A DNA stretch of 64,000 nt from Deltaproteobacteria bacterium. GTDB lineage: Bacteria > SAR324 > JACQKK01. Position 1 is the first letter of the stretch. Each line of letters begins with the position of its first letter. The notes under the pieces are model-generated. The model made no database searches and was not told the DNA's origin. It saw nothing but the letters and a program-made list of their open reading frames with translations. Below, piece by piece: positions 8,535 through 63,789 of the stretch. The position numbers and the translations under genes were made by a program. The stretch covers positions 9,939-73,938 of the forward strand of contig JAOUEW010000008.1 of assembly GCA_029858505.1 (NCBI GenBank). The letters are read 5' to 3'.

Positions 8535-8639
8535 GGTCACCAAAGGAAAGAGATACCTTGCCAGATCACAACATCGTGGATCGTTTGTACACGCTCTGCA
8601 TCGTTGATTGGATGGGGGGGCATCCCAACAGCACCCCTC

Positions 8640-8800
8640 CCTGGCGGCTTCGCCGCCTGTCCCTCCCCTTCGTGGAGGGACTTTACCCGAAACCATCGGC
8701 TATTCGATTCATCCGTGCGGATGGTGAAACCGGGCAAAAGATAATACGACATCCGCGGGCTTCGATTCATTTTCCTTCCACGAAGGGGAGGGGTGCCGTT
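8640..8800. repeat. Single copy of the ~125-bp structured repeat family, flanked by inverted hairpin arms.
   Basis: GAAACCATCGGCTATTCGATTCATCCGTGCGGATGG...GCGGGCTTCGATTC is homologous to the units at 31157, 33803 and 36305. The flanks GTCCCTCCCCTTCGTGGAGGGAC and CCACGAAGGGGAGGGG are reverse complements of each other. Confidence 0.6.
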
Positions 8801-12816: not shown

Positions 12817-12936
12817 ATTGATCAACGTTGATATAAAGATAGGGTGGAATAAGAAGAATAAGAATCGGTGAGAATAGGAGAATAGGGTCGTCAACGTATA
12901 AATGATGTATCCTGGAAGGTATAGACAGAGACCTTT

Positions 12937-12977
12937 GCATAACCCGGGTTTTTGCCGTGAACGGGGGGCATGGGGAG
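12937..12977 (+). promoter_or_regulatory. Copy 1 of the conserved upstream motif TGCATAACCSGGGTTTTTGCCGTGAA, about 70 bp upstream of pirin.
   Basis: Near-identical to 19406-19446 (+) and to the reverse complement of 43740-43760. All three are co-oriented with the downstream gene. Confidence 0.5.
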
Positions 12978-13031
12978 CGAGGCCCCCCAATAAACTCAGC
13001 CCCCCTGCCCCATCATTTCCGGAGACCCCCC

Positions 13032-19264: not shown

Positions 19265-19405
19265 TTTGGATTGCCGCCTGAAAGGCGGCGGGGAGGGGTA
19301 TTTCAAAGAGAGATCATACGGCAGCATGAATGGAGCCTGAACAAACAAAACCATGGTTTCACCCATGATCTGGGACAACCCCCAGAAAGAAAATAGGAGA
19401 CATCT

Positions 19406-19479
19406 GCATAACCAGGGTTTTTGCCGTGAAAAGGGGGAATGGGAGATGGGAAAAAATAGGTTATGCAGAGGTCTCTATA
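19406..19479 (+). promoter_or_regulatory. Copy 2 of the conserved upstream motif, embedded in an inverted-repeat structure about 170 bp upstream of the oxidase operon.
   Basis: TGCATAACCAGGGTTTTTGCCGTGAAAAGGGGGAATGGGAG. Arms CTGCATAACC / GGTTATGCAG flank the core. The distal arm GGTTATGCAGAGGTCTCTATA is the reverse complement of TATAGA(CA)GAGACCTtTGCATAACC at copy 1. Confidence 0.5.
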
Positions 19480-19605
19480 TGAGAACGAGGAGAAAATAAA
19501 TTGAAACGGGTTGAACACCCACGGAACGAACCGGAACAGGGTTCCCCGGATCGTCCGCCATGAACTGGAACCCCGCCATCAGCCACGCTGAGAAAGGAAC
19601 GTGTT

Positions 19606-19770
19606 ATGGCCAATAAATCCAACCCATCTGGAGGGCAGCCCCCCCTGGGCCAGCGGTTGTTCGACAGCCCCTTCCTGCTGCTGGCCGCGGGCCTGGTCAT
19701 CATGCTGGTGTTCTATACCGCCTGGGGAATCATCGAATTGGTCACCATGCCCCAGGCCTTGCTCCCCTAA
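19606..19770 (+). CDS. Small (54 aa) membrane protein immediately upstream of coxB; possible oxidase-associated subunit. Below the ORF-track length cut-off.
   Basis: ATG with RBS-like GAAAGGAAC 8 bp upstream. Encodes MANKSNPSGGQPPLGQRLFDSPFLLLAAGLVIMLVFYTAWGIIELVTMPQALLP with one TM helix. Ends 25 bp before coxB. Confidence 0.45.
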   Translation: MANKSNPSGGQPPLGQRLFDSPFLLLAAGLVIMLVFYTAWGIIELVTMPQALLP

Positions 19771-23217: not shown

Positions 23218-23403
23218 GGAATTCCAGCATCCCCCTCAACCGTTCCGTTGATTCCGCCGGACGGAAGCCATCCCGTCACTTATCGGCTTCAAACCATCCC
23301 CCCCTCCCTGATTGGGGAGGGGGCAGGGGGGAGAGGTGTTGATGGGGGGTGTTGTTGGGAGAGATGTGAAAAATAAAGGTTAAGCAAATGTCTCCGGGAA
23401 CGG

Positions 23404-25877: not shown

Positions 25878-26405
25878 TCAGGGGGCGTCGATCAACCCCA
25901 GGGCAGCAAGCCCCTGGCGATAAGCATCGCGCTTGAAGGGCACCACTTCTTCCGGCGCTTGGGCCACGTACACCCAGCGGTAATCATCAAACTCTGGGGG
26001 GTGGTGCTGAAAATGAATGGCCGTGACGGGCACTTTCAGCCGTACTAAAAACCAATACTGAGATTGACCCGTGAAGCGGGCCAAGGCGGGCTTGCCCTCG
26101 GTCAACCGCCGCAGCACATCGGGGGGGTAAAGGTAGGGGATGGGCTGGGGGGTTTGCTTCACCACTTCCACTTCGTCGGTGCCAATCTCTTCTTTCAGTT
26201 CGCGCAGCAAGGCTTGCAGGGGGGTTTCGCCCGGGTCCATGCCCCCTTGAGGAAACTGCCAGCGATATTCTCCCAGGCCGTCTCCCACCCGGCGGAACAT
26301 CAGCACCTCGTTCCCGCCTTCGCTGGCCACCACGGCCAGCACCGCCGGGCGCAAATGGGGGTTGTCTGCCTGGAGAGTCACGGACTGGGGGGTTGGGTTA
26401 GTCAT
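25878..26405 (-). CDS. NUDIX hydrolase (RppH/NudH-like).
   Basis: Nudix box GGMDPGETPLQALLRELKEEIG. Confidence 0.8.
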   Translation of the reverse strand: MTNPTPQSVTLQADNPHLRPAVLAVVASEGGNEVLMFRRVGDGLGEYRWQFPQGGMDPGETPLQALLRELKEEIGTDEVEVVKQTPQPIPYLYPPDVLRRLTEGKPALARFTGQSQYWFLVRLKVPVTAIHFQHHPPEFDDYRWVYVAQAPEEVVPFKRDAYRQGLAALGLIDAP

Positions 26406-27522
26406 CGGGGTATCTGCTTTTAATGGCCACCACGTGGTCTATATTGCCCAAGAATTGTTCCACCAAGGTGGGGTCAAAATGGGTTCCCGCCATTTTACGC
26501 ATCATGCTCACCGCCTCGTACCACGAGAAAGCGTCTTTGTACACGCGGCGGTTGGTGAGAGCGTCGAACACATCGCATATGGCCGTGATGCGGGCCTCGA
26601 GGGGGATGTTTTCCCCCTTCAATCCTTTGGGATAGCCCGTGCCGTCCCATTTTTCGTGGTGGTGCAGGGCCACCATCGCGGCCATTTCCAACAGGGGCAC
26701 CTGGGACCCCCGCAAAATTTGATAGCCGATGTCCACGTGAGTTTTCATCAATTCATATTCCGCCGGGGTGAGTTTTTCCGGCTTGTGCAGCACGTCGTCG
26801 GGAATGCCGATTTTCCCAATGTCGTGCAGGGCGGAAGCGGGGCGGATCATCCGCTGGGACGGCTCGTCCATGCCAGCCAGTTCAGCCAAGTATTGAGAGT
26901 AATGACTCATCCGCTGCACGTGGCGGTGGGTTTCGTTGTCGCGGAATTCGGCCACCCGCATCAGGCGGTTCACGATTTCCTCCTGAGCATATACCAAGTT
27001 CTGCTGGGTGTTTTTCAGAGTCACCAGGGTGGTACGCAGGTCTTCCGTCCGTTCCTGAATATCCAGTTCCAGGTTCACGCGTGCTTGGCGCTGGGCCATT
27101 TCCAACTGCCTTCGGCGCAGGGCGTTCGTCACGTTGATGATGAGCTCGATGGTCTTGAAGGGTTTGATTAAGTACCCATAGGCCCCTAAGGCCAGCACCT
27201 TGTCCGAGTTTTCCCGCTGATCGGAGGCGGTGACCATGATGGTGGCCATGTCGGGGAAGACTTTCAGGGTGCGTTCAATCAGTTCCAGGCCGCTCAACCC
27301 CGGCATGTTGATGTCGCACAGCATCAAGTCAAACGTATGCTCGCTTAACTGGGCCAGGGCATCCAAGGCATTCACCGCCTCAACGGGGGCAAAGCCCTCC
27401 CGACGCAAAATATCGCAGATCATTTTGCGCACCAGCCGGTCGTCATCCACCACCAGTGTCCGCACCGATTGGGGCGGCGCCAAAGGCGCTTCGGCGGGGG
27501 GCTGGGGGTTCGGTGGTTCCAT
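26398..27522 (-). CDS. Response regulator with an HD-GYP phosphodiesterase domain.
   Basis: Receiver LVVDDDRLVRKMICDIL...CDINMPGLSG, then HDIGKIGIPDDVL...HHHEKWDGTGYPKGL (HD-GYP). Confidence 0.85.
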   Translation of the reverse strand: MEPPNPQPPAEAPLAPPQSVRTLVVDDDRLVRKMICDILRREGFAPVEAVNALDALAQLSEHTFDLMLCDINMPGLSGLELIERTLKVFPDMATIMVTASDQRENSDKVLALGAYGYLIKPFKTIELIINVTNALRRRQLEMAQRQARVNLELDIQERTEDLRTTLVTLKNTQQNLVYAQEEIVNRLMRVAEFRDNETHRHVQRMSHYSQYLAELAGMDEPSQRMIRPASALHDIGKIGIPDDVLHKPEKLTPAEYELMKTHVDIGYQILRGSQVPLLEMAAMVALHHHEKWDGTGYPKGLKGENIPLEARITAICDVFDALTNRRVYKDAFSWYEAVSMMRKMAGTHFDPTLVEQFLGNIDHVVAIKSRYPDD

Positions 27523-27617
27523 GGGTCTTTGCTTAGGGGGGTCAATATTTAGGGGATAAAAAATAGAGGAAAATTTTTAGGCAAACGGTTTGAACAAACC
27601 TTTTGAAAATACCGAGA

Positions 27618-28316
27618 TCAGCGCCCCAGCACCGTGTTCAACACACGGGGGTCGGCCAAGTTGGCAAACAAATGACCCGGTTGGTGGGCGGCCAAGTCTT
27701 CCAGAGAATACCGCCCCGTGGCCACCGCCACGGCGGTCCAACCCAGGGGCCGACAACAGGCAATGTCTGCCGGGGTATCCCCCACCACCACCACCGACCG
27801 GCCGGGAAACACCGTTCCCCACTCCAAGCGGGCGGCCTCCAGGGCCAGGGGGGGCAGGTCCATCCGGCTTTCGTGGTATTGCCCAAAGGCCCCCAGGGCA
27901 AATTCTTCTTCCAGCCCGGCGGCTGATAATTTTAGGCGGGAAGATTCCTCGCAGTTGCCGGTGAGCAGCCCCACCAGCACACCCTCCATCGCGTTCAGCC
28001 GACGCAACAGGTCTTTCACCCCAGGATGAACCGTGATGTGCTCCGCCGACATGCGCTGGGGCAGCAAAAAAAAATAAGCCTCCCACAGGGCCTCTAGCCG
28101 GGGAGGAACCGCCTCTCTGGGCAAACCAGCCGCCGCGGCAAAGTCATACACAATGGCCAGTTCGGTTTTCCCGTCCATCAGGCGGCCATCGTTGGGCGGG
28201 CGCACGCCGTAAACCTCGGTAAAAGCGTCTTCCAGGGCTTTCACCGCCCGCCCGTTGGTGTCGAGCAGAGTGCCATCGATGTCGAACAACACCATCCGGT
28301 GAAAGGTATGATCCAT
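27618..28316 (-). CDS. HAD-superfamily hydrolase (phosphoglycolate phosphatase-like).
   Basis: Motif I MVLFDIDGTLLDT. Start set at MDHTFHR. Confidence 0.7.
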   Translation of the reverse strand: MDHTFHRMVLFDIDGTLLDTNGRAVKALEDAFTEVYGVRPPNDGRLMDGKTELAIVYDFAAAAGLPREAVPPRLEALWEAYFFLLPQRMSAEHITVHPGVKDLLRRLNAMEGVLVGLLTGNCEESSRLKLSAAGLEEEFALGAFGQYHESRMDLPPLALEAARLEWGTVFPGRSVVVVGDTPADIACCRPLGWTAVAVATGRYSLEDLAAHQPGHLFANLADPRVLNTVLGR

Positions 28317-31156: not shown

Positions 31157-31376
31157 CTCGAAGCCATCGGCTATTCTCTACAACCGTTCGGTGGATGAAG
31201 ATTGAACGGATGCAAGCGCATAGCATCGCGGCTTCGAGTGATTCCCAAAAGCACCTCTCCCCTGCCCCCTGGCGGGGGCATCCCCTCCCCAATCAGGGAG
31301 GGGAAAGACTCGAAGCCATCGGCTATTCTCTACAACCGTTTGGTTGGTGAAAACTGAACGGATGCAAGCGCATCAC
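31157..31376. repeat. Two copies of the ~125-bp structured repeat family between the first and second genes of the unknown cluster.
   Basis: CTCGAAGCCATCGGCTATTCTCTACAACCGTTCGG...GCGGCTTCGAG (31157-31238) and a second head CTCGAAGCCATCGGCTATTCTCTACAACCGTTTGG at 31309-31376. A GC hairpin GCCCCCTGGCGGGGGC lies between them. Confidence 0.65.
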
Positions 31377-33802: not shown

Positions 33803-34325
33803 CTCGAATCCACCGGCTATTTCATTCGGCCGTTCGGATGGGTCGGGTGAACGGAAACAAGCAACGCCCTAACGCCATTGAACTCCCCCTCTCTTCGGGA
33901 GAGGGGGGCGGGGGGTGAGGTCCAATGGCTCGAATCCACCGGCTATTCTATTCTCCTGTTCGGATGGGTCGGGCGAACGGAAACAAGCAACGCCCTAACG
34001 CCTTTGAACTCCCCCTCTCTTCGGGAGAGGGGGGCGGGGGGTGAGGTCCAATGGCTCGAATCCACCGGCTATTCTATTCTCCCGTTCGGATGGGTCGGGC
34101 GAACGGAAACAAGCAACGCCCTAACGCCTTTGAACTCCCCCTCTCTTCGGGAGAGGGGGGCGGGGGGTGAGGTCCAATGGCTCGAATCCACCGGCTATTC
34201 TATTCTCCCGTTCGGATGGGTTGGGCGAACGGAAACAAGCAACGCCCTAACGCCATTGAACTCCCCCTCTCTTCGGGAGAGGGGGGCGGGGGGTGAGGTC
34301 CAATGGCTCGAATCCACCGGCTTCG
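33803..34325. repeat. Tandem array of about 4.2 copies of a 126-bp unit of the structured repeat family.
   Basis: Unit starts at 33803, 33929, 34055, 34181 and 34307, exactly 126 bp apart and over 97% identical. Each unit carries the CCGTTCGGATGGGTCGGGCGAACGG hairpin and the CCCCCTCTCTTCGGGAGAGGGGG UUCG-loop hairpin. Confidence 0.85.
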
Positions 34326-34375
34326 AGAATCAAGAGGTGATTGAAGAATAAACGGGGAGAGAAAAACCGAACCCT

Positions 34376-36150: not shown

Positions 36151-36304
36151 CGTTATACCATAGAACGAGACGCCGTGGGTTCCGGTCGCAGCCCCCCCCT
36201 CCCCAGCGACCGGAGCCCCGGCGTTCCTCGTTTTTTCCCCATCGGATTCTTTCCCTTCCTTTTTTATCCCCTTTATTCTCATTTCTTCTTCCGCCGTCCC
36301 GATA

Positions 36305-36745
36305 CTCGAAGCCAGCGGTTATTCTGTTCATCCGTTAAAGCACCCCTCCCTGGCACCTTCGGTGCCTGTCCCTCCCCATCGTGGAGGGACAATACGGCTT
36401 AGGCCGAGGGGTGGAGATAGAATCCGTTTGGATGAGGAGACCGGAAGGAAGCAAGCGATTAACTTTTCGGCTTCGCTTTATTTCCCCTCCACGAAGGGGA
36501 GGGGATGTCCGCACAGCGGGCAGGGGAGGGGTGCTTTACGAGAGGGGCAGTGCTCGAAGCCAGCGGTTATTTTCTTCAACCGTTCAGTTGGTGAAAACTG
36601 AGCGGAAACAAGCAACGCCCAAACGCCATTGAGCTCCCCCTCTCTTCGGGAGAGGGGGCGGGGGGTGAGGTCCAAATACTCGAAGCCATCGGTTATTTTC
36701 TTCAACCGTTCGAATTGAGAAGACAGGAGGGCGGAAATACACCCC
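36305..36745. repeat. Cluster of three units of the structured repeat family (one expanded unit with nested inverted repeats, one full unit, one partial).
   Basis: Unit heads CTCGAAGCCAGCGGTTATT at 36305 and 36553, and CTCGAAGCCATCGGTTATT at 36678. The 36553-36677 unit is about 85% identical to the 33803 array unit. 36340-36534 contains nested palindromes GCACCCCTCCCTG...CAGGGGAGGGGTGC and GTCCCTCCCC...GGGGAGGGGATGTCC. Confidence 0.8.
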
Positions 36746-36765
36746 CCGATTGCGAACTGCCCCCC

Positions 36766-38694
36766 TTAGGGGGCGGGCTGAGGGGGCTGAGACGAGGCAG
36801 GTTCAGTAGGTGGAGCTGGGGCGGGAGCTTCCAGCATGGGCGCCGCAGTGGTGCCGGGGATATCCACAAACGGGATGTTTTGACGGAACAACACGCCTTC
36901 TTCCGGCGGGCGGCTGCCCTCGAATAAAACCGGGTCACTGGCGGTGAGGTACAAGATGAGGGTTTTTCGGGCTTTCTCCTGGTTGTTCATCCGCCGATAC
37001 ACCCGGCTGAGCCGCTCTAAAAACACCGTGCGGTAATGGTTGTTTTTTTCCAGCCCGGCTTCGAGCAGATCCCGGGCCAGCACCCAGTTGCCGCTTTCTT
37101 CGGCCACCCGGCTGGCCCCCTCAATCAACCCATAGTTTCGGGGATACAACGCCAGCCCCCGGTTGAACACCGCTTCGGCCTGCTTCAGGTTTCCCTCCAT
37201 TTGATACAGGTTCCCCACGGCCCGGTGAAAGGCCCCCAGGCCTTCTCCCCGGGTAAGGTAGGGGGTGAGCATTTGCAGCGCCTTGCGGGTGTTTCCCAGG
37301 CGGCCTTCCGCGGTACCGGCCAGATACACCGCCTCCCAGGGGGGGTCTTTCATGGCCAGCAGGGGTTTCGCCCCCTCCAGCGCGGCATTGTAATCGCCTT
37401 GAATGTAGGCCAGCCTGGCCCGGGCAAACAAGATGGCCGTTCCATGGTCGGGCAGCCCATCCAACACTTGTTTGGCTTCCGCAAAGCGGCCGGTCAGGGT
37501 GAGCCACTCCCCCTTCACCAGCAATCCCCGAAAATCGGTGGGGTTCAATTTCAAGTATTCTTCAATCCGCAGCCGTGCCTCCTCCAGTTTTCGCTCGGCC
37601 ATCAGCCGCTGAATTTTCAGCAGCTTGATCTGCGGATTTTCCGGATTGATTTTTTCCGCGGCGTTCAACAGGGTTTGCGCTTGGTCGGTTTCCTCTGCCC
37701 GGAACAGCAGCACGGCTTTCCAATACAGGGCTTCCTGTTGGTTGGGCTCAATATCTAGCAGGGTATTCAGCGATTCCATGGCCTGGGGGTGTTCCCCCCG
37801 GGAGATGGCCCCCCTGGCCAGGGCCAACAACACCCCCGGATGGGAAGGTTGGTGGCGGGCCAGCCCAGCCAGCAACTGGTCGGCTTGTTGAATTTCTCCT
37901 TTGCTCCGCAAGATCTCCACCCGCACCAATTGATCTTCGGTTTCCAAACCATCTTTTTGGCGCAATTGGCCCATCACCTTCAGGGCGTCGTCCCATTCCT
38001 GTCGCTGGTAATGAATATCCAGTTGCTCACGCAGCAAATCCGGGTCTCCCGGCCACTGGCGAAGGTCATCGCTGATCACCAGGGAAGCCACCGAAAAGTT
38101 ACCGCTGGCCTTCAAGATGCGAATTTTCAGCACCCGGGCATCGTGATCGTTGGGAGACACCCCCAGGGCGGCTTCCACCTCTCGGCGGGCCTCGGCCTGG
38201 CGGCCCAAGGCAAACAGCATGCGGGCATACTGAAACCGGCCTTCGAAATAACGTGGATCCCGCGCGGTGATTTTGGCTAAGATTTCCAACCCGCGGTCGG
38301 TTTGGTTCACCAGTTCATGGGTCATGGCCAGTTTCACGCTGGCCGACAGCAGGTCGGGGTCTATTTGGCTGGCTTGGTTGTAGGCCATCAGGGCGGGGAA
38401 ATACTTCTTTTGCCCCAGGTTGGCATCCCCCAGGGTCACTAAAATTTGGGCGTCGTAGGGATTCAACTTGGCAGCCTGGGCCGCGTAGGGCTCGGCTTCG
38501 GCGGGTTTGTTTTCTTTCACCAGCACCTGGGCCAACTCATGCAGCAATTCGGCATCCTCCGGCTGGCTCTCAACTTGTTTCCGGAGTTCCAACTCTCTCT
38601 GGGCCAGCTGGGTGGATAGTTCTTTGGCGCGCCAGGGGTTCAGCACCGACAGGTCGGAACAGCCGGAGAGGACGATCAACACGCCCGCCAACAT
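36766..38694 (-). CDS. Tetratricopeptide-repeat lipoprotein.
   Basis: Multiple TPR units across the full length. Start chosen at MLAGVLIVLSGC (lipobox); the ORF-track 5' extension is Arg/Gly-rich and overlaps the upstream gene. Confidence 0.65.
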   Translation of the reverse strand: MLAGVLIVLSGCSDLSVLNPWRAKELSTQLAQRELELRKQVESQPEDAELLHELAQVLVKENKPAEAEPYAAQAAKLNPYDAQILVTLGDANLGQKKYFPALMAYNQASQIDPDLLSASVKLAMTHELVNQTDRGLEILAKITARDPRYFEGRFQYARMLFALGRQAEARREVEAALGVSPNDHDARVLKIRILKASGNFSVASLVISDDLRQWPGDPDLLREQLDIHYQRQEWDDALKVMGQLRQKDGLETEDQLVRVEILRSKGEIQQADQLLAGLARHQPSHPGVLLALARGAISRGEHPQAMESLNTLLDIEPNQQEALYWKAVLLFRAEETDQAQTLLNAAEKINPENPQIKLLKIQRLMAERKLEEARLRIEEYLKLNPTDFRGLLVKGEWLTLTGRFAEAKQVLDGLPDHGTAILFARARLAYIQGDYNAALEGAKPLLAMKDPPWEAVYLAGTAEGRLGNTRKALQMLTPYLTRGEGLGAFHRAVGNLYQMEGNLKQAEAVFNRGLALYPRNYGLIEGASRVAEESGNWVLARDLLEAGLEKNNHYRTVFLERLSRVYRRMNNQEKARKTLILYLTASDPVLFEGSRPPEEGVLFRQNIPFVDIPGTTAAPMLEAPAPAPPTEPASSQPPQPAP

Positions 38695-63432: not shown

Positions 63433-63668
63433 GCAAAGTATTTCGATCTACTAGCGCTGTCGGTTTAATCTTTTTCAGCTTGATCTTTTCTCTCTGCTCT
63501 CTTTGCGCTCGGTTCCCGGTCTCTTCTCTTTTATTCTTTTTTCCTGCGGCTTCTTTCTGGTTCTTACTGCTGCTTATAAAATGTATCTCCCCCCTTTTTC
63601 TTGCTCTCGCTCTTATTCTGGCTTCGCCCCCCCTTTCACGACAACCCCTGGTCGCTCAGAGGTCTCTT

Positions 63669-63738
63669 CTTTCTGGCGGCCTGTCTAGCGGGCTGGGCCC
63701 GCCTTTCTTTCTGGCGGCCTGTCTAGCGGGCTGGGCCC
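63669..63738. repeat. 35-bp direct repeat x2, each carrying a GCGGGCtggGCCCGC hairpin, at the end of a ~300-bp polypyrimidine (CT-rich) tract.
   Basis: CTTTCTGGCGGCCTGTCTAGCGGGCTGGGCCCGCC occurs twice back-to-back. Positions 63430-63700 are about 80% C+T on the plus strand. Confidence 0.6.
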
Positions 63739-63789
63739 GCCCAAGAACGCAGCACTGGAATCTCGTGGGGGATGGAGAAAATCCGCGGC

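Follow-up and report, generated by a model that had tools for sequence, protein, structure and literature searches.

A mosaic cluster of palindromic repeats, probably of the REP/BIME/REPIN kind, between trxA and a TPR gene of a SAR324-lineage bacterium

We analysed a family of intergenic repeats in a stretch of 64,000 nucleotides (hereafter the window) from contig JAOUEW010000008.1 of a bacterium of the SAR324 lineage (assembly GCA_029858505.1). The locus under study is the 615-bp gap that separates the stop codon of trxA (36150, plus strand) from the stop codon of a convergent gene for a 642-aa TPR protein (36766, minus strand). A terminator scan placed the stem of the trxA terminator at 36212-36227, followed by TCGTTTTTTC, and this terminator stands between trxA and the repeats. 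A reading made from the letters without database searches (the sequence-only reading) had described a repeat cluster in this gap, and this observation was confirmed with small corrections. The 19-mer CTCGAAGCCAGCGGTTATT that heads the units was found exactly at 36305 and 36553 and with one mismatch at 36679, so that all three heads previously reported are real, the third starting at 36679 and not at 36678. Allowing up to three mismatches, nine matches to this head were obtained in the window, all on the plus strand, and none in 100 shuffles. The head also starts the units at 31157 and 31309 and four units of a tandem array at 33803-34322, and a degenerate copy was detected at 8688. The other places at which the family had been reported (8640, 31157, 31309 and 33803-34307) therefore all hold real copies, the segment 8630-8800 having the degenerate head. 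The gap had been said to be devoted entirely to these elements, which is slightly overstated, positions 36151-36304 being occupied by the terminator and a pyrimidine-rich spacer.

The unit at 36553-36678 is similar to the units of the tandem array, as reported, and the identity of about 85% first given was slightly high: global alignment with the four array units gave 80-83%, reaching 93% across the hairpin-bearing 67 nt of the 3' part. The hairpins described as UUCG hairpins were found in these units. They are not canonical cUUCGg tetraloops, which were ruled out by a misfit of the pairing register; in the best register, hairpins of this type have stems of 6-8 bp closed by TTC, TAC or TGC triloops or by a TTCGG loop. 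The nested inverted repeats of the first unit also exist, with outer arms GCACCCCTCCCTG at 36340 and CAGGGGAGGGGTGC at 36521 and inner arms GTCCCTCCCCATCGTGGAGGGAC at 36368 and CCCCTCCACGAAGGGGAGGGGATGTCC at 36484, this fourth arm having been misquoted. These arms belong to a segment of about 197 nt that had been taken for an insertion of about 200 bp into the first unit. The segment is there, but it is no simple insertion: it is a complete 197-nt inverted doublet (36339-36535) lying beside a 32-nt head fragment, and the sequence 3' of the doublet does not continue an interrupted head unit.

To collect further copies, iterated nhmmer profiles were run against the window and 35 loci from JGI metagenomes, a set of 343 kb in total that represents a mere fraction of either genome concerned (that of the window and that of Ga0224495). 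The 35 loci came from a scan of JGI metagenomes with the head pattern. All but one belong to Ga0224495 (3300022208), the contigs of which reach 982 kb; the remaining locus (L135) matches the pattern alone and is probably there by chance. A scan of genome_contigs with TCGAANCCANCGGNTATT, a pattern that proved too degenerate, returned 115 single chance matches, all in unrelated taxa. Ga0224495 is the closest relative of the window in the protein database, yet a distant one, with 65% identity between the valyl-tRNA synthetases (ValRS) and 71% between the valS genes at the DNA level. The valS block is syntenic between the two (HTH_25, ParA, LptF/G, a 906-aa protein and ValRS), and at the DNA level they match in the repeats only. 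The closest named relatives of the window ValRS are metagenome-assembled genomes labelled SAR324 cluster or Candidatus Lambdaproteobacteria, at 61-62% identity. Identical trxA and TPR proteins occur on contigs of two further samples (ENA ERZ27296335 and Logan SRR7132115). The trxA-TPR cluster of an ENA contig (L116) is identical to that of the window, and two short-read Logan contigs of the same organism (L117 and L155) terminate within repeats.

The searches yielded a core module in 104 copies and a double-hairpin (DH) unit in 79. The core, about 88 nt long, has the consensus CTCGAA(G/T)CCAYCGGYTATTCT-ATTCA-NCCGTTCGG...AAGACTGGACGGAAGCAAGCGC-AT.AC.TTTCGGCTTCGAG, with the tail TTTCGGCTTCGAG.T..TTCC, and is asymmetric apart from its 9-bp ends CTCGAAGCC/GGCTTCGAG. 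It is conserved in sequence and not in pairing. An internal hairpin CCGTTC...GAACGG, seemingly supported by compensatory changes in the window copies, was rejected as it is not kept across the 104 copies. The DH unit is 52 nt long, with stems of 5-8 bp, and has the consensus (TCCCAAC)AGCACCCCTCC(C)CTG, hairpin 1, TGT or ATC, then CCCTCCCC.TCG..GGAGGG(AC). Its second hairpin is nearly invariant, whereas the sequence of hairpin 1 varies freely while its pairing is kept: at least 19 different stems were counted among 36 distinct variants, and the pairs comprised 228 Watson-Crick, no G:T and a single A:C. In 25 copies of a first subtype, type a, five of the six pairs were altered on both sides and 99.3% of the cells remained paired. 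None of 500 shuffles reached the covariation score of hairpin 1. A second subtype, type b, completes the set of DH units, and all 79 copies lie outside called genes. The family is confined neither to this window nor to a single strain, since its hairpins are kept from copy to copy and in both genomes.

The arrangement of neighbouring DH units revealed a larger composite. Seventeen of the 19 pairs in plus/minus orientation have a spacing of 89-95 nt, and each of these 17 joins one a-type to one b-type unit; minus/plus junctions measure 10-53 nt. Because of this fixed spacing and this pairing of subtypes, the basic composite is a DHa unit, AATG, a core and an inverted DHb unit, about 197 nt in all. 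The spacer of the doublet is the core module, 93 nt long and conserved in sequence. Folding of the doublets gave z scores between -5 and -12 against shuffles on both strands; that of 36339-36535 scored -11.8 on the plus and -7.1 on the minus strand, and the whole region 36296-36765 scored -6.0 and -5.7 on the two strands. Simple 126-nt units gave only -1 to -2.6 and contain one local hairpin, barely better than shuffles. Further modules, called A3, C, M4 and linker X, are spliced to core and DH in many orders. A3 is the 3' part of the 126-nt unit, with the hairpin CCCCTCTC-TTCGG-GAGAGGGG, and C is a DH-like unit without hairpin 1. The recurrence of the modules in many combinations in Ga0224495 bears out the modular, composite structure, like that of mosaic elements, that had been proposed from the window. 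The make-up of the clusters differs greatly from site to site. The parts of the trxA-TPR cluster and the other copies in the window are listed in Table 1.

Table 1. Parts of the trxA-TPR gap and other copies of the repeat family in the window.
Feature	Positions	Strand	Remarks
Intrinsic terminator of trxA	36168-36236	+	Long GC-rich hairpin, then TTTTTT; outside the repeat family
Pyrimidine-rich tract, 65 nt, T/C runs	36240-36304		From the trxA terminator to the first head; fits no defined module
Core head fragment, 32 nt, CTCGAAGCCAGCGGTTATTCTGTTCATCCGTT	36305-36336	+	Ends after ATCCGTT; nhmmer match
Inverted doublet, about 197 nt	36339-36535		DH type a, 94-nt interior, inverted DH type b
DH type a	36339-36390	+	AGCACCCCTCCCTG, hairpin 1 GGCACC-TTC-GGTGCC, TGT, hairpin 2 GTCCCTCC...GGAGGGAC
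Linker X, AATACGGCTTAGGCCGAGGGGTGGAGATAGA	36391-36421	+	Replaces the core head inside this doublet variant
3' half of core, ATCCGTTTGGATG...GGAAGCAAGCG...TTTTCGGCTTCGCTTTATTTCC	36422-36484	+	Tail GGCTTCG; nhmmer match 36422-36457
DH type b, inverted	36485-36535	-	nhmmer match; 94 nt from the a-type DH
126-nt unit, core head + A3	36553-36678	+	Unit type as in the array 33803-34322
A3 hairpin of unit 36553	~36636-36658	+	CCCCTCTC-TTCGG-GAGAGGGG
Third unit, decayed	36679-36765	+	Head/core discernible to ~36731 (nhmmer match 36679-36731)
Tandem array, 4.1 x 126-nt head + A3 units	33803-34322	+	97% matches; between convergent genes
Two cores on either side of a b-type DH (31250-31302)	31157-31371	+	First core complete, ends CTCGAAGCC...GGCTTCGAG
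Solitary doublet	8623-8800	+	DH type a, degenerate core, DH remnant without hairpin 1; divergent gap
Partial core + module C	23236-23349	+	C is DH-like, without hairpin 1; between convergent genes

The doublet at 36339-36535 is 74-88% similar to the one at 8623-8800. Its linker X was found elsewhere three times in one related locus (L121) and also in L127 and L141. The order head fragment, DH and linker recurs in L127 with 92% identity over 138 nt, and three X-type interiors in L121 have no head fragment before them; the first unit at 36305 is therefore a recurrent mosaic variant and no fresh insertion with a target duplication. Beyond about 36731 the third unit carries an A3-like G/C-rich palindrome that reaches the TPR stop codon (36766-36768, minus strand), and the terminator scan detected a weak terminator-like site on the minus strand at 36747-36726. 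The TPR stop itself (TTA on the plus strand) lies in the loop of a palindrome CCCCCC-TTA-GGGGG at 36760-36773, which can be aligned loosely to the third unit's A3 hairpin, so that a repeat may supply the last codons and the stop of the TPR gene. The tandem array differs in copy number between the window (4.1 units) and the otherwise 99.95%-identical ENA contig L116 (about 1.1 units, at its positions 1-366), either by true copy-number variation or by assembler collapse. Its 126-nt unit corresponds to 42 codons and leaves a frame of 157 codons open at 33878-34351. This frame is not kept elsewhere, and the array is non-coding since unit 36553 has an in-frame TGA and the copies differ by 1-nt indels.

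The clusters are not distributed at random among the gaps between genes. With genes called by a crude codon-usage caller, which reproduced the public calls at the trxA-TPR locus, clusters were counted in 16 of 39 convergent gaps (41%), 21 of 173 co-directional ones and 3 of 38 divergent ones (8%; chi-square p = 1.7e-5), and in 16 of the 24 convergent gaps of at least 50 bp. Clusters mostly start 10-60 nt past a stop codon. Those that stand more than about 80 nt away often have a canonical terminator in front of them, as at trxA. The genes beside clusters are ordinary housekeeping ones (encoding, among others, MutS, Tgt, RsmA, hydrolases, DUF192 and a PilZ protein), and none is a transposase.

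On balance, we consider it probable that the repeats clustered in the gap are palindromic elements, neither coding nor autonomous, of the kind represented by repetitive extragenic palindromic (REP) sequences, bacterial interspersed mosaic elements (BIMEs) and REPINs, that is, a selfish mosaic with probable side effects at transcript 3' ends. The family is undescribed; the kind of element is familiar. The replicating unit is most likely the inverted doublet of about 197 nt, which is predicted to fold, as single-stranded DNA or RNA, into one long hairpin, and the solitary cores, head + A3 units, C modules and tandem arrays seem to have arisen from it by rearrangement, truncation or local duplication. 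Such elements would be selfish DNA that spreads and is maintained with the help of an enzyme acting in trans and encoded outside the searched DNA; by analogy, this could be a transposase of the RAYT (REP-associated tyrosine transposase) type, an HUH/Y1 enzyme acting on folded single strands. They may accumulate where they do least harm, in promoter-free DNA past stop codons and chiefly between convergent genes. At the trxA-TPR locus, the strong hairpins would probably stop or stall the TPR transcript, which seems to have no good terminator of its own; they could also shield 3' ends against exonucleases and prevent overlap of the convergent trxA and TPR transcripts. As a further side effect, the cluster may mark a rearrangement breakpoint.

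Among the systems nearest to this family are the REPINs of Pseudomonas fluorescens, inverted REP doublets whose spacing is fixed, which fold into hairpins and carry compensatory changes (Bertels and Rainey 2011, PMC3116915). As in REPINs, palindromic units are inverted at a fixed spacing (89-95 nt here against 71 or 110 bp there), the entire element folds into one long hairpin with compensatory changes in the stem, and extragenic copies form clusters of doublets. Unlike the single REP of about 20 nt in REPINs, the unit of this family is a 52-nt double hairpin, and the two arms belong to distinct subtypes. The family also shares the short palindromic stem-loop, the extragenic position and the many copies (79 DH units in 343 kb) with the REPs surveyed by Di Nocera et al. 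(2013, PMC3733652), which like these repeats lie mainly downstream of open reading frames, in co-directional and convergent gaps. BIMEs are composite structures of REPs in alternating orientation (PMC2817692). The present family resembles those of E. coli in that alternating palindromic units are joined by a small set of conserved linkers, in tandem amplification, and in its sites after genes and between convergent genes. In contrast with BIMEs, to which it is unrelated in sequence, the family has far longer linkers and no E. coli-type consensus site for integration host factor (IHF) in its copies. In both systems two subtypes of the unit alternate, those of BIMEs being the Y and Z types. ERIC/IRU, BOX and Correia elements are likewise imperfect palindromes of 100-200 nt found in transcribed intergenic DNA with modular size variants, and the family is like them, as these elements are usually described, in its size and in its modular or internally "inserted" variants; they do not have regular heterotypic double-hairpin arms. 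To our knowledge, and going by their descriptions, none of them is similar to the family in sequence.

Several observations weigh against an assignment to REP-like mobile elements. REPIN spacers are poorly conserved (PMC3116915), whereas the spacer here is a conserved, asymmetric core of 93 nt that is also found alone and in the 126-nt tandem units. Most REPs fall into two super-families according to a GTAG or CGTC tag, unpaired at the end of the stem-loop (Di Nocera et al. 2013, PMC3733652), and no such tag was present at the ends of the DH units in the alignment of 79 copies, the conserved flanks being AGCACCCCTCCCTG, TGT/ATC and AAT(G). The 343 kb searched yielded no transposase of any kind, and tblastn against this DNA with an approximate E. 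coli RAYT sequence gave no match with E < 1. The copies are about 25% diverged and, with the exception of the local tandem array, bear no sign of recent bursts. Neither insertion or excision polymorphism nor an empty site was seen, the cluster being identical in a second sample. The side effects on transcription, finally, we infer throughout.

Module consensuses are 82-85% identical between the window genome and Ga0224495 (82% for the core), and copies are no more alike within than between genomes, with mean pairwise identities of 0.73-0.77 against 0.73 for the core and 0.80-0.82 against 0.81 for DH. As copies are equally alike within and between genomes, the family appears to be old or to have been exchanged, and to have been kept near a common consensus in both lineages. 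This conservation would fit continued copying from masters that an enzyme can recognise; selection site by site would fit it too.

The repeats could instead be miniature inverted-repeat transposable elements (MITEs). They would then derive by deletion from an insertion sequence of the DDE type, and their terminal inverted repeats would serve for cut-and-paste movement. The core does have terminal inverted repeats CTCGAAGCC...GGCTTCGAG and longer imperfect arms, the inverted arms of the doublet, itself about 200 nt long, measure about 70 nt and are imperfect, and ATCCGTT on either side of the 85-nt segment 36338-36422 can be read as a target duplication. No consistent target-site duplication was seen at the ends of the elements, and we rejected the ATCCGTT reading, this arrangement being a recurrent variant (L121, L127) that also occurs without a preceding head fragment (L121). 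No insertion sequence or transposase with matching ends was found in the searched DNA, and the strictly heterotypic a/b doublets, the alternating arrays and the compensatory variation of the hairpin are traits of REPINs and BIMEs more than of MITEs. We therefore regard a MITE origin as unlikely, even though a second, unrelated and MITE-like family is present in both genomes. This second family, GAGACMTYTGCATAACCMGGGTTTTTGCCGTGAAAAGGGGGAATGGGG..., lies at 12921-13012 and 19387-19476 in the window and in L142, L144, L146 and L149, with 86-94% identity; at 19350-19610 and in L149 its first 17 nt recur inverted about 60-110 nt further on, as in a small MITE, and both window copies are upstream of plus-strand genes.

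Still less probable, in our opinion, is that DH units, perhaps together with the core, are structured RNA genes or cis-elements, relatives of the whalefall-1 RNA selected for an RNA function. The motif of that name (RF01762) was the closest database entry: the minus strand of 36341-36392 scored 26.8 bits (E = 3.5e-5) with the same layout. This is below the gathering score of 37, which was reached by no copy in the window or in 11 related loci (105 kb, about 45 DH copies). No other Rfam family gave a match at its gathering level in the window or these loci either, and no ribozyme or riboswitch was detected in the gap even at E <= 10. An RNA function would agree with the covariation of hairpin 1, with the location of most clusters within 60 nt past a stop codon, where they are probably transcribed, and with the grade of likely RNA that whalefall-1 received when it was published (Weinberg et al. 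2010, PMC2864571). The absence of G:U from 229 pairs of hairpin 1 speaks against it. True RNA families normally show some G:U pairs. Moreover, both strands fold equally well, and both orientations are found without bias relative to transcription (in co-directional gaps, 14 against 17 for DH and 25 against 16 for the core). The units have neither a promoter-like site nor their own terminator, the core keeps its sequence but not its putative hairpin, and at the trxA-TPR locus the trxA terminator precedes the repeats. Since both strands fold, hairpin 1 lacks wobble pairs, orientation is unbiased and promoters and terminators are missing, the data speak more for palindromic DNA, or for single strands of both polarities, than for an RNA made from one strand.

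The likeness to whalefall-1 may nevertheless be meaningful. In the DH minus strand the parts follow one another as they do there (hairpin, CAG, variable hairpin, purine-rich tail), and GUCCCUCC...GGAGGGACAG is common to both. According to the seed coordinates, 12 of the 16 whalefall-1 seed sequences are arranged as six inverted pairs with spacings of 33-57 nt. Every pair joins the two sequence subtypes, as the a/b doublets do. On the other hand, the score stays below the gathering level, the second hairpin has 9 bp there and 5-8 bp in DH, and the whale-fall spacers are shorter and do not match the core. The original proposal for whalefall-1 was not a DNA repeat but a small RNA gene whose function is unknown (Weinberg et al. 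2010, PMC2864571). The pairs in its seed suggest, without proving it, that a similar DNA repeat has whalefall-1 as its arm. It is conceivable, and we put it forward tentatively as something rather doubtful, that DH and whalefall-1 form one class of untagged heterotypic inverted doublets around GTCCCTCC...GGAGGGACAG; whalefall-1 would then be a REPIN-like DNA repeat, the mover would be something other than GTAG-cutting RAYTs, and the 93-nt core could be a recognition or cargo segment.

A use by the host would be another explanation. The repeats would then be domesticated, either as binding sites of gyrase or of nucleoid proteins or as barriers to transcription in both directions, their copy number resulting from selection at each site and not from mobility. 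The 82-85% identity of module consensuses between genomes with 71% identical valS DNA, the equal likeness of copies within and between genomes, the conserved sequence of an asymmetric 63-nt core and the presence of clusters in two thirds of the convergent gaps of at least 50 bp are all in its favour. The positions are not: no copy is found at any conserved position that can be checked, the syntenic valS region of 9 kb has none in either genome, and two loci (L153 and L154) have no repeats at the 3' end of the TPR gene. The make-up of the clusters also varies greatly by site. The presence of IHF sites as in BIME-1 or RIP elements, a check prompted by the sequence-only reading, was not borne out: the consensus WATCAANNNNTTR, which is that of E. 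coli and may not be that of this host, was found in no copy, its two matches in the window lying elsewhere. The uneven distribution of REP families, as published, argues against a general essential role (PMC3733652). We give this explanation as little credit as an RNA function. The sequence-only reading had also suggested an insulator or an RNA stability element, and proximity to stop codons and enrichment in convergent gaps are consistent with both of these tentative suggestions. As trxA has its own terminator upstream of the repeats, stabilisation of the trxA mRNA by the cluster is unlikely.

The idea that the cluster might be a recombination hotspot led to a search for synteny breaks, and one was found. 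In the loci of the nearest TPR homologues (L153 and L154, 50% and 38% identity), a response-regulator gene and a hypothetical gene are followed by the TPR gene and then directly by a convergent NUDIX gene, without repeats, so that the block of NUDIX, response-regulator/HD and HAD genes abuts the TPR gene there. In the window the TPR gene adjoins the repeat cluster, followed by trxA, def and DUF192, and the block of NUDIX, RR-HD and HAD genes lies inverted at 25881-28298, 8.4 kb from the TPR gene. The TPR-NUDIX adjacency of the two relatives is thus interrupted exactly at the cluster, and one breakpoint of what appears to be a derived rearrangement coincides with it. The 8.4 kb between (28.3-36.8 kb) hold three of the five clusters of the window. 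This would be consistent with repeats serving as recombination substrates, in a single comparison across large distances.

Two other readings were rejected. A plasmid or phage origin found no support, blastn giving no match and the lone IMG/VR match being a contig of the same Ga0224495 metagenome. That contig (L139/L157, Ga0224495_10000439, 33.5 kb) is listed in IMG/VR as a viral genome; its extreme end holds a head + A3 unit, and this could mark the border of a prophage or a contig break at a repeat. A replication-strand bias, suggested by the plus orientation of all nine heads in the window, was discarded as the orientations are interspersed along the 982-kb contig of Ga0224495. Apart from the repeat family, the window contains near its end a perfect 38-bp direct duplication, TTCTTTCTGGCGGCCTGTCTAGCGGGCTGGGCCCGCC, in two copies at 63667-63741.

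The family adds a REPIN- or BIME-like system from a poorly known lineage, and does not overturn the current understanding of such elements. Being untagged and having an unusually conserved asymmetric spacer, it offers a test case for the recognition and movement of such elements. For the organism of the window, the repeats break short-read assemblies and mark a rearrangement breakpoint. They also show, for the first time, a genomic setting for something akin to whalefall-1, an orphan motif, and if whalefall-1 is the arm of a mobile palindromic doublet, its Rfam annotation would change.

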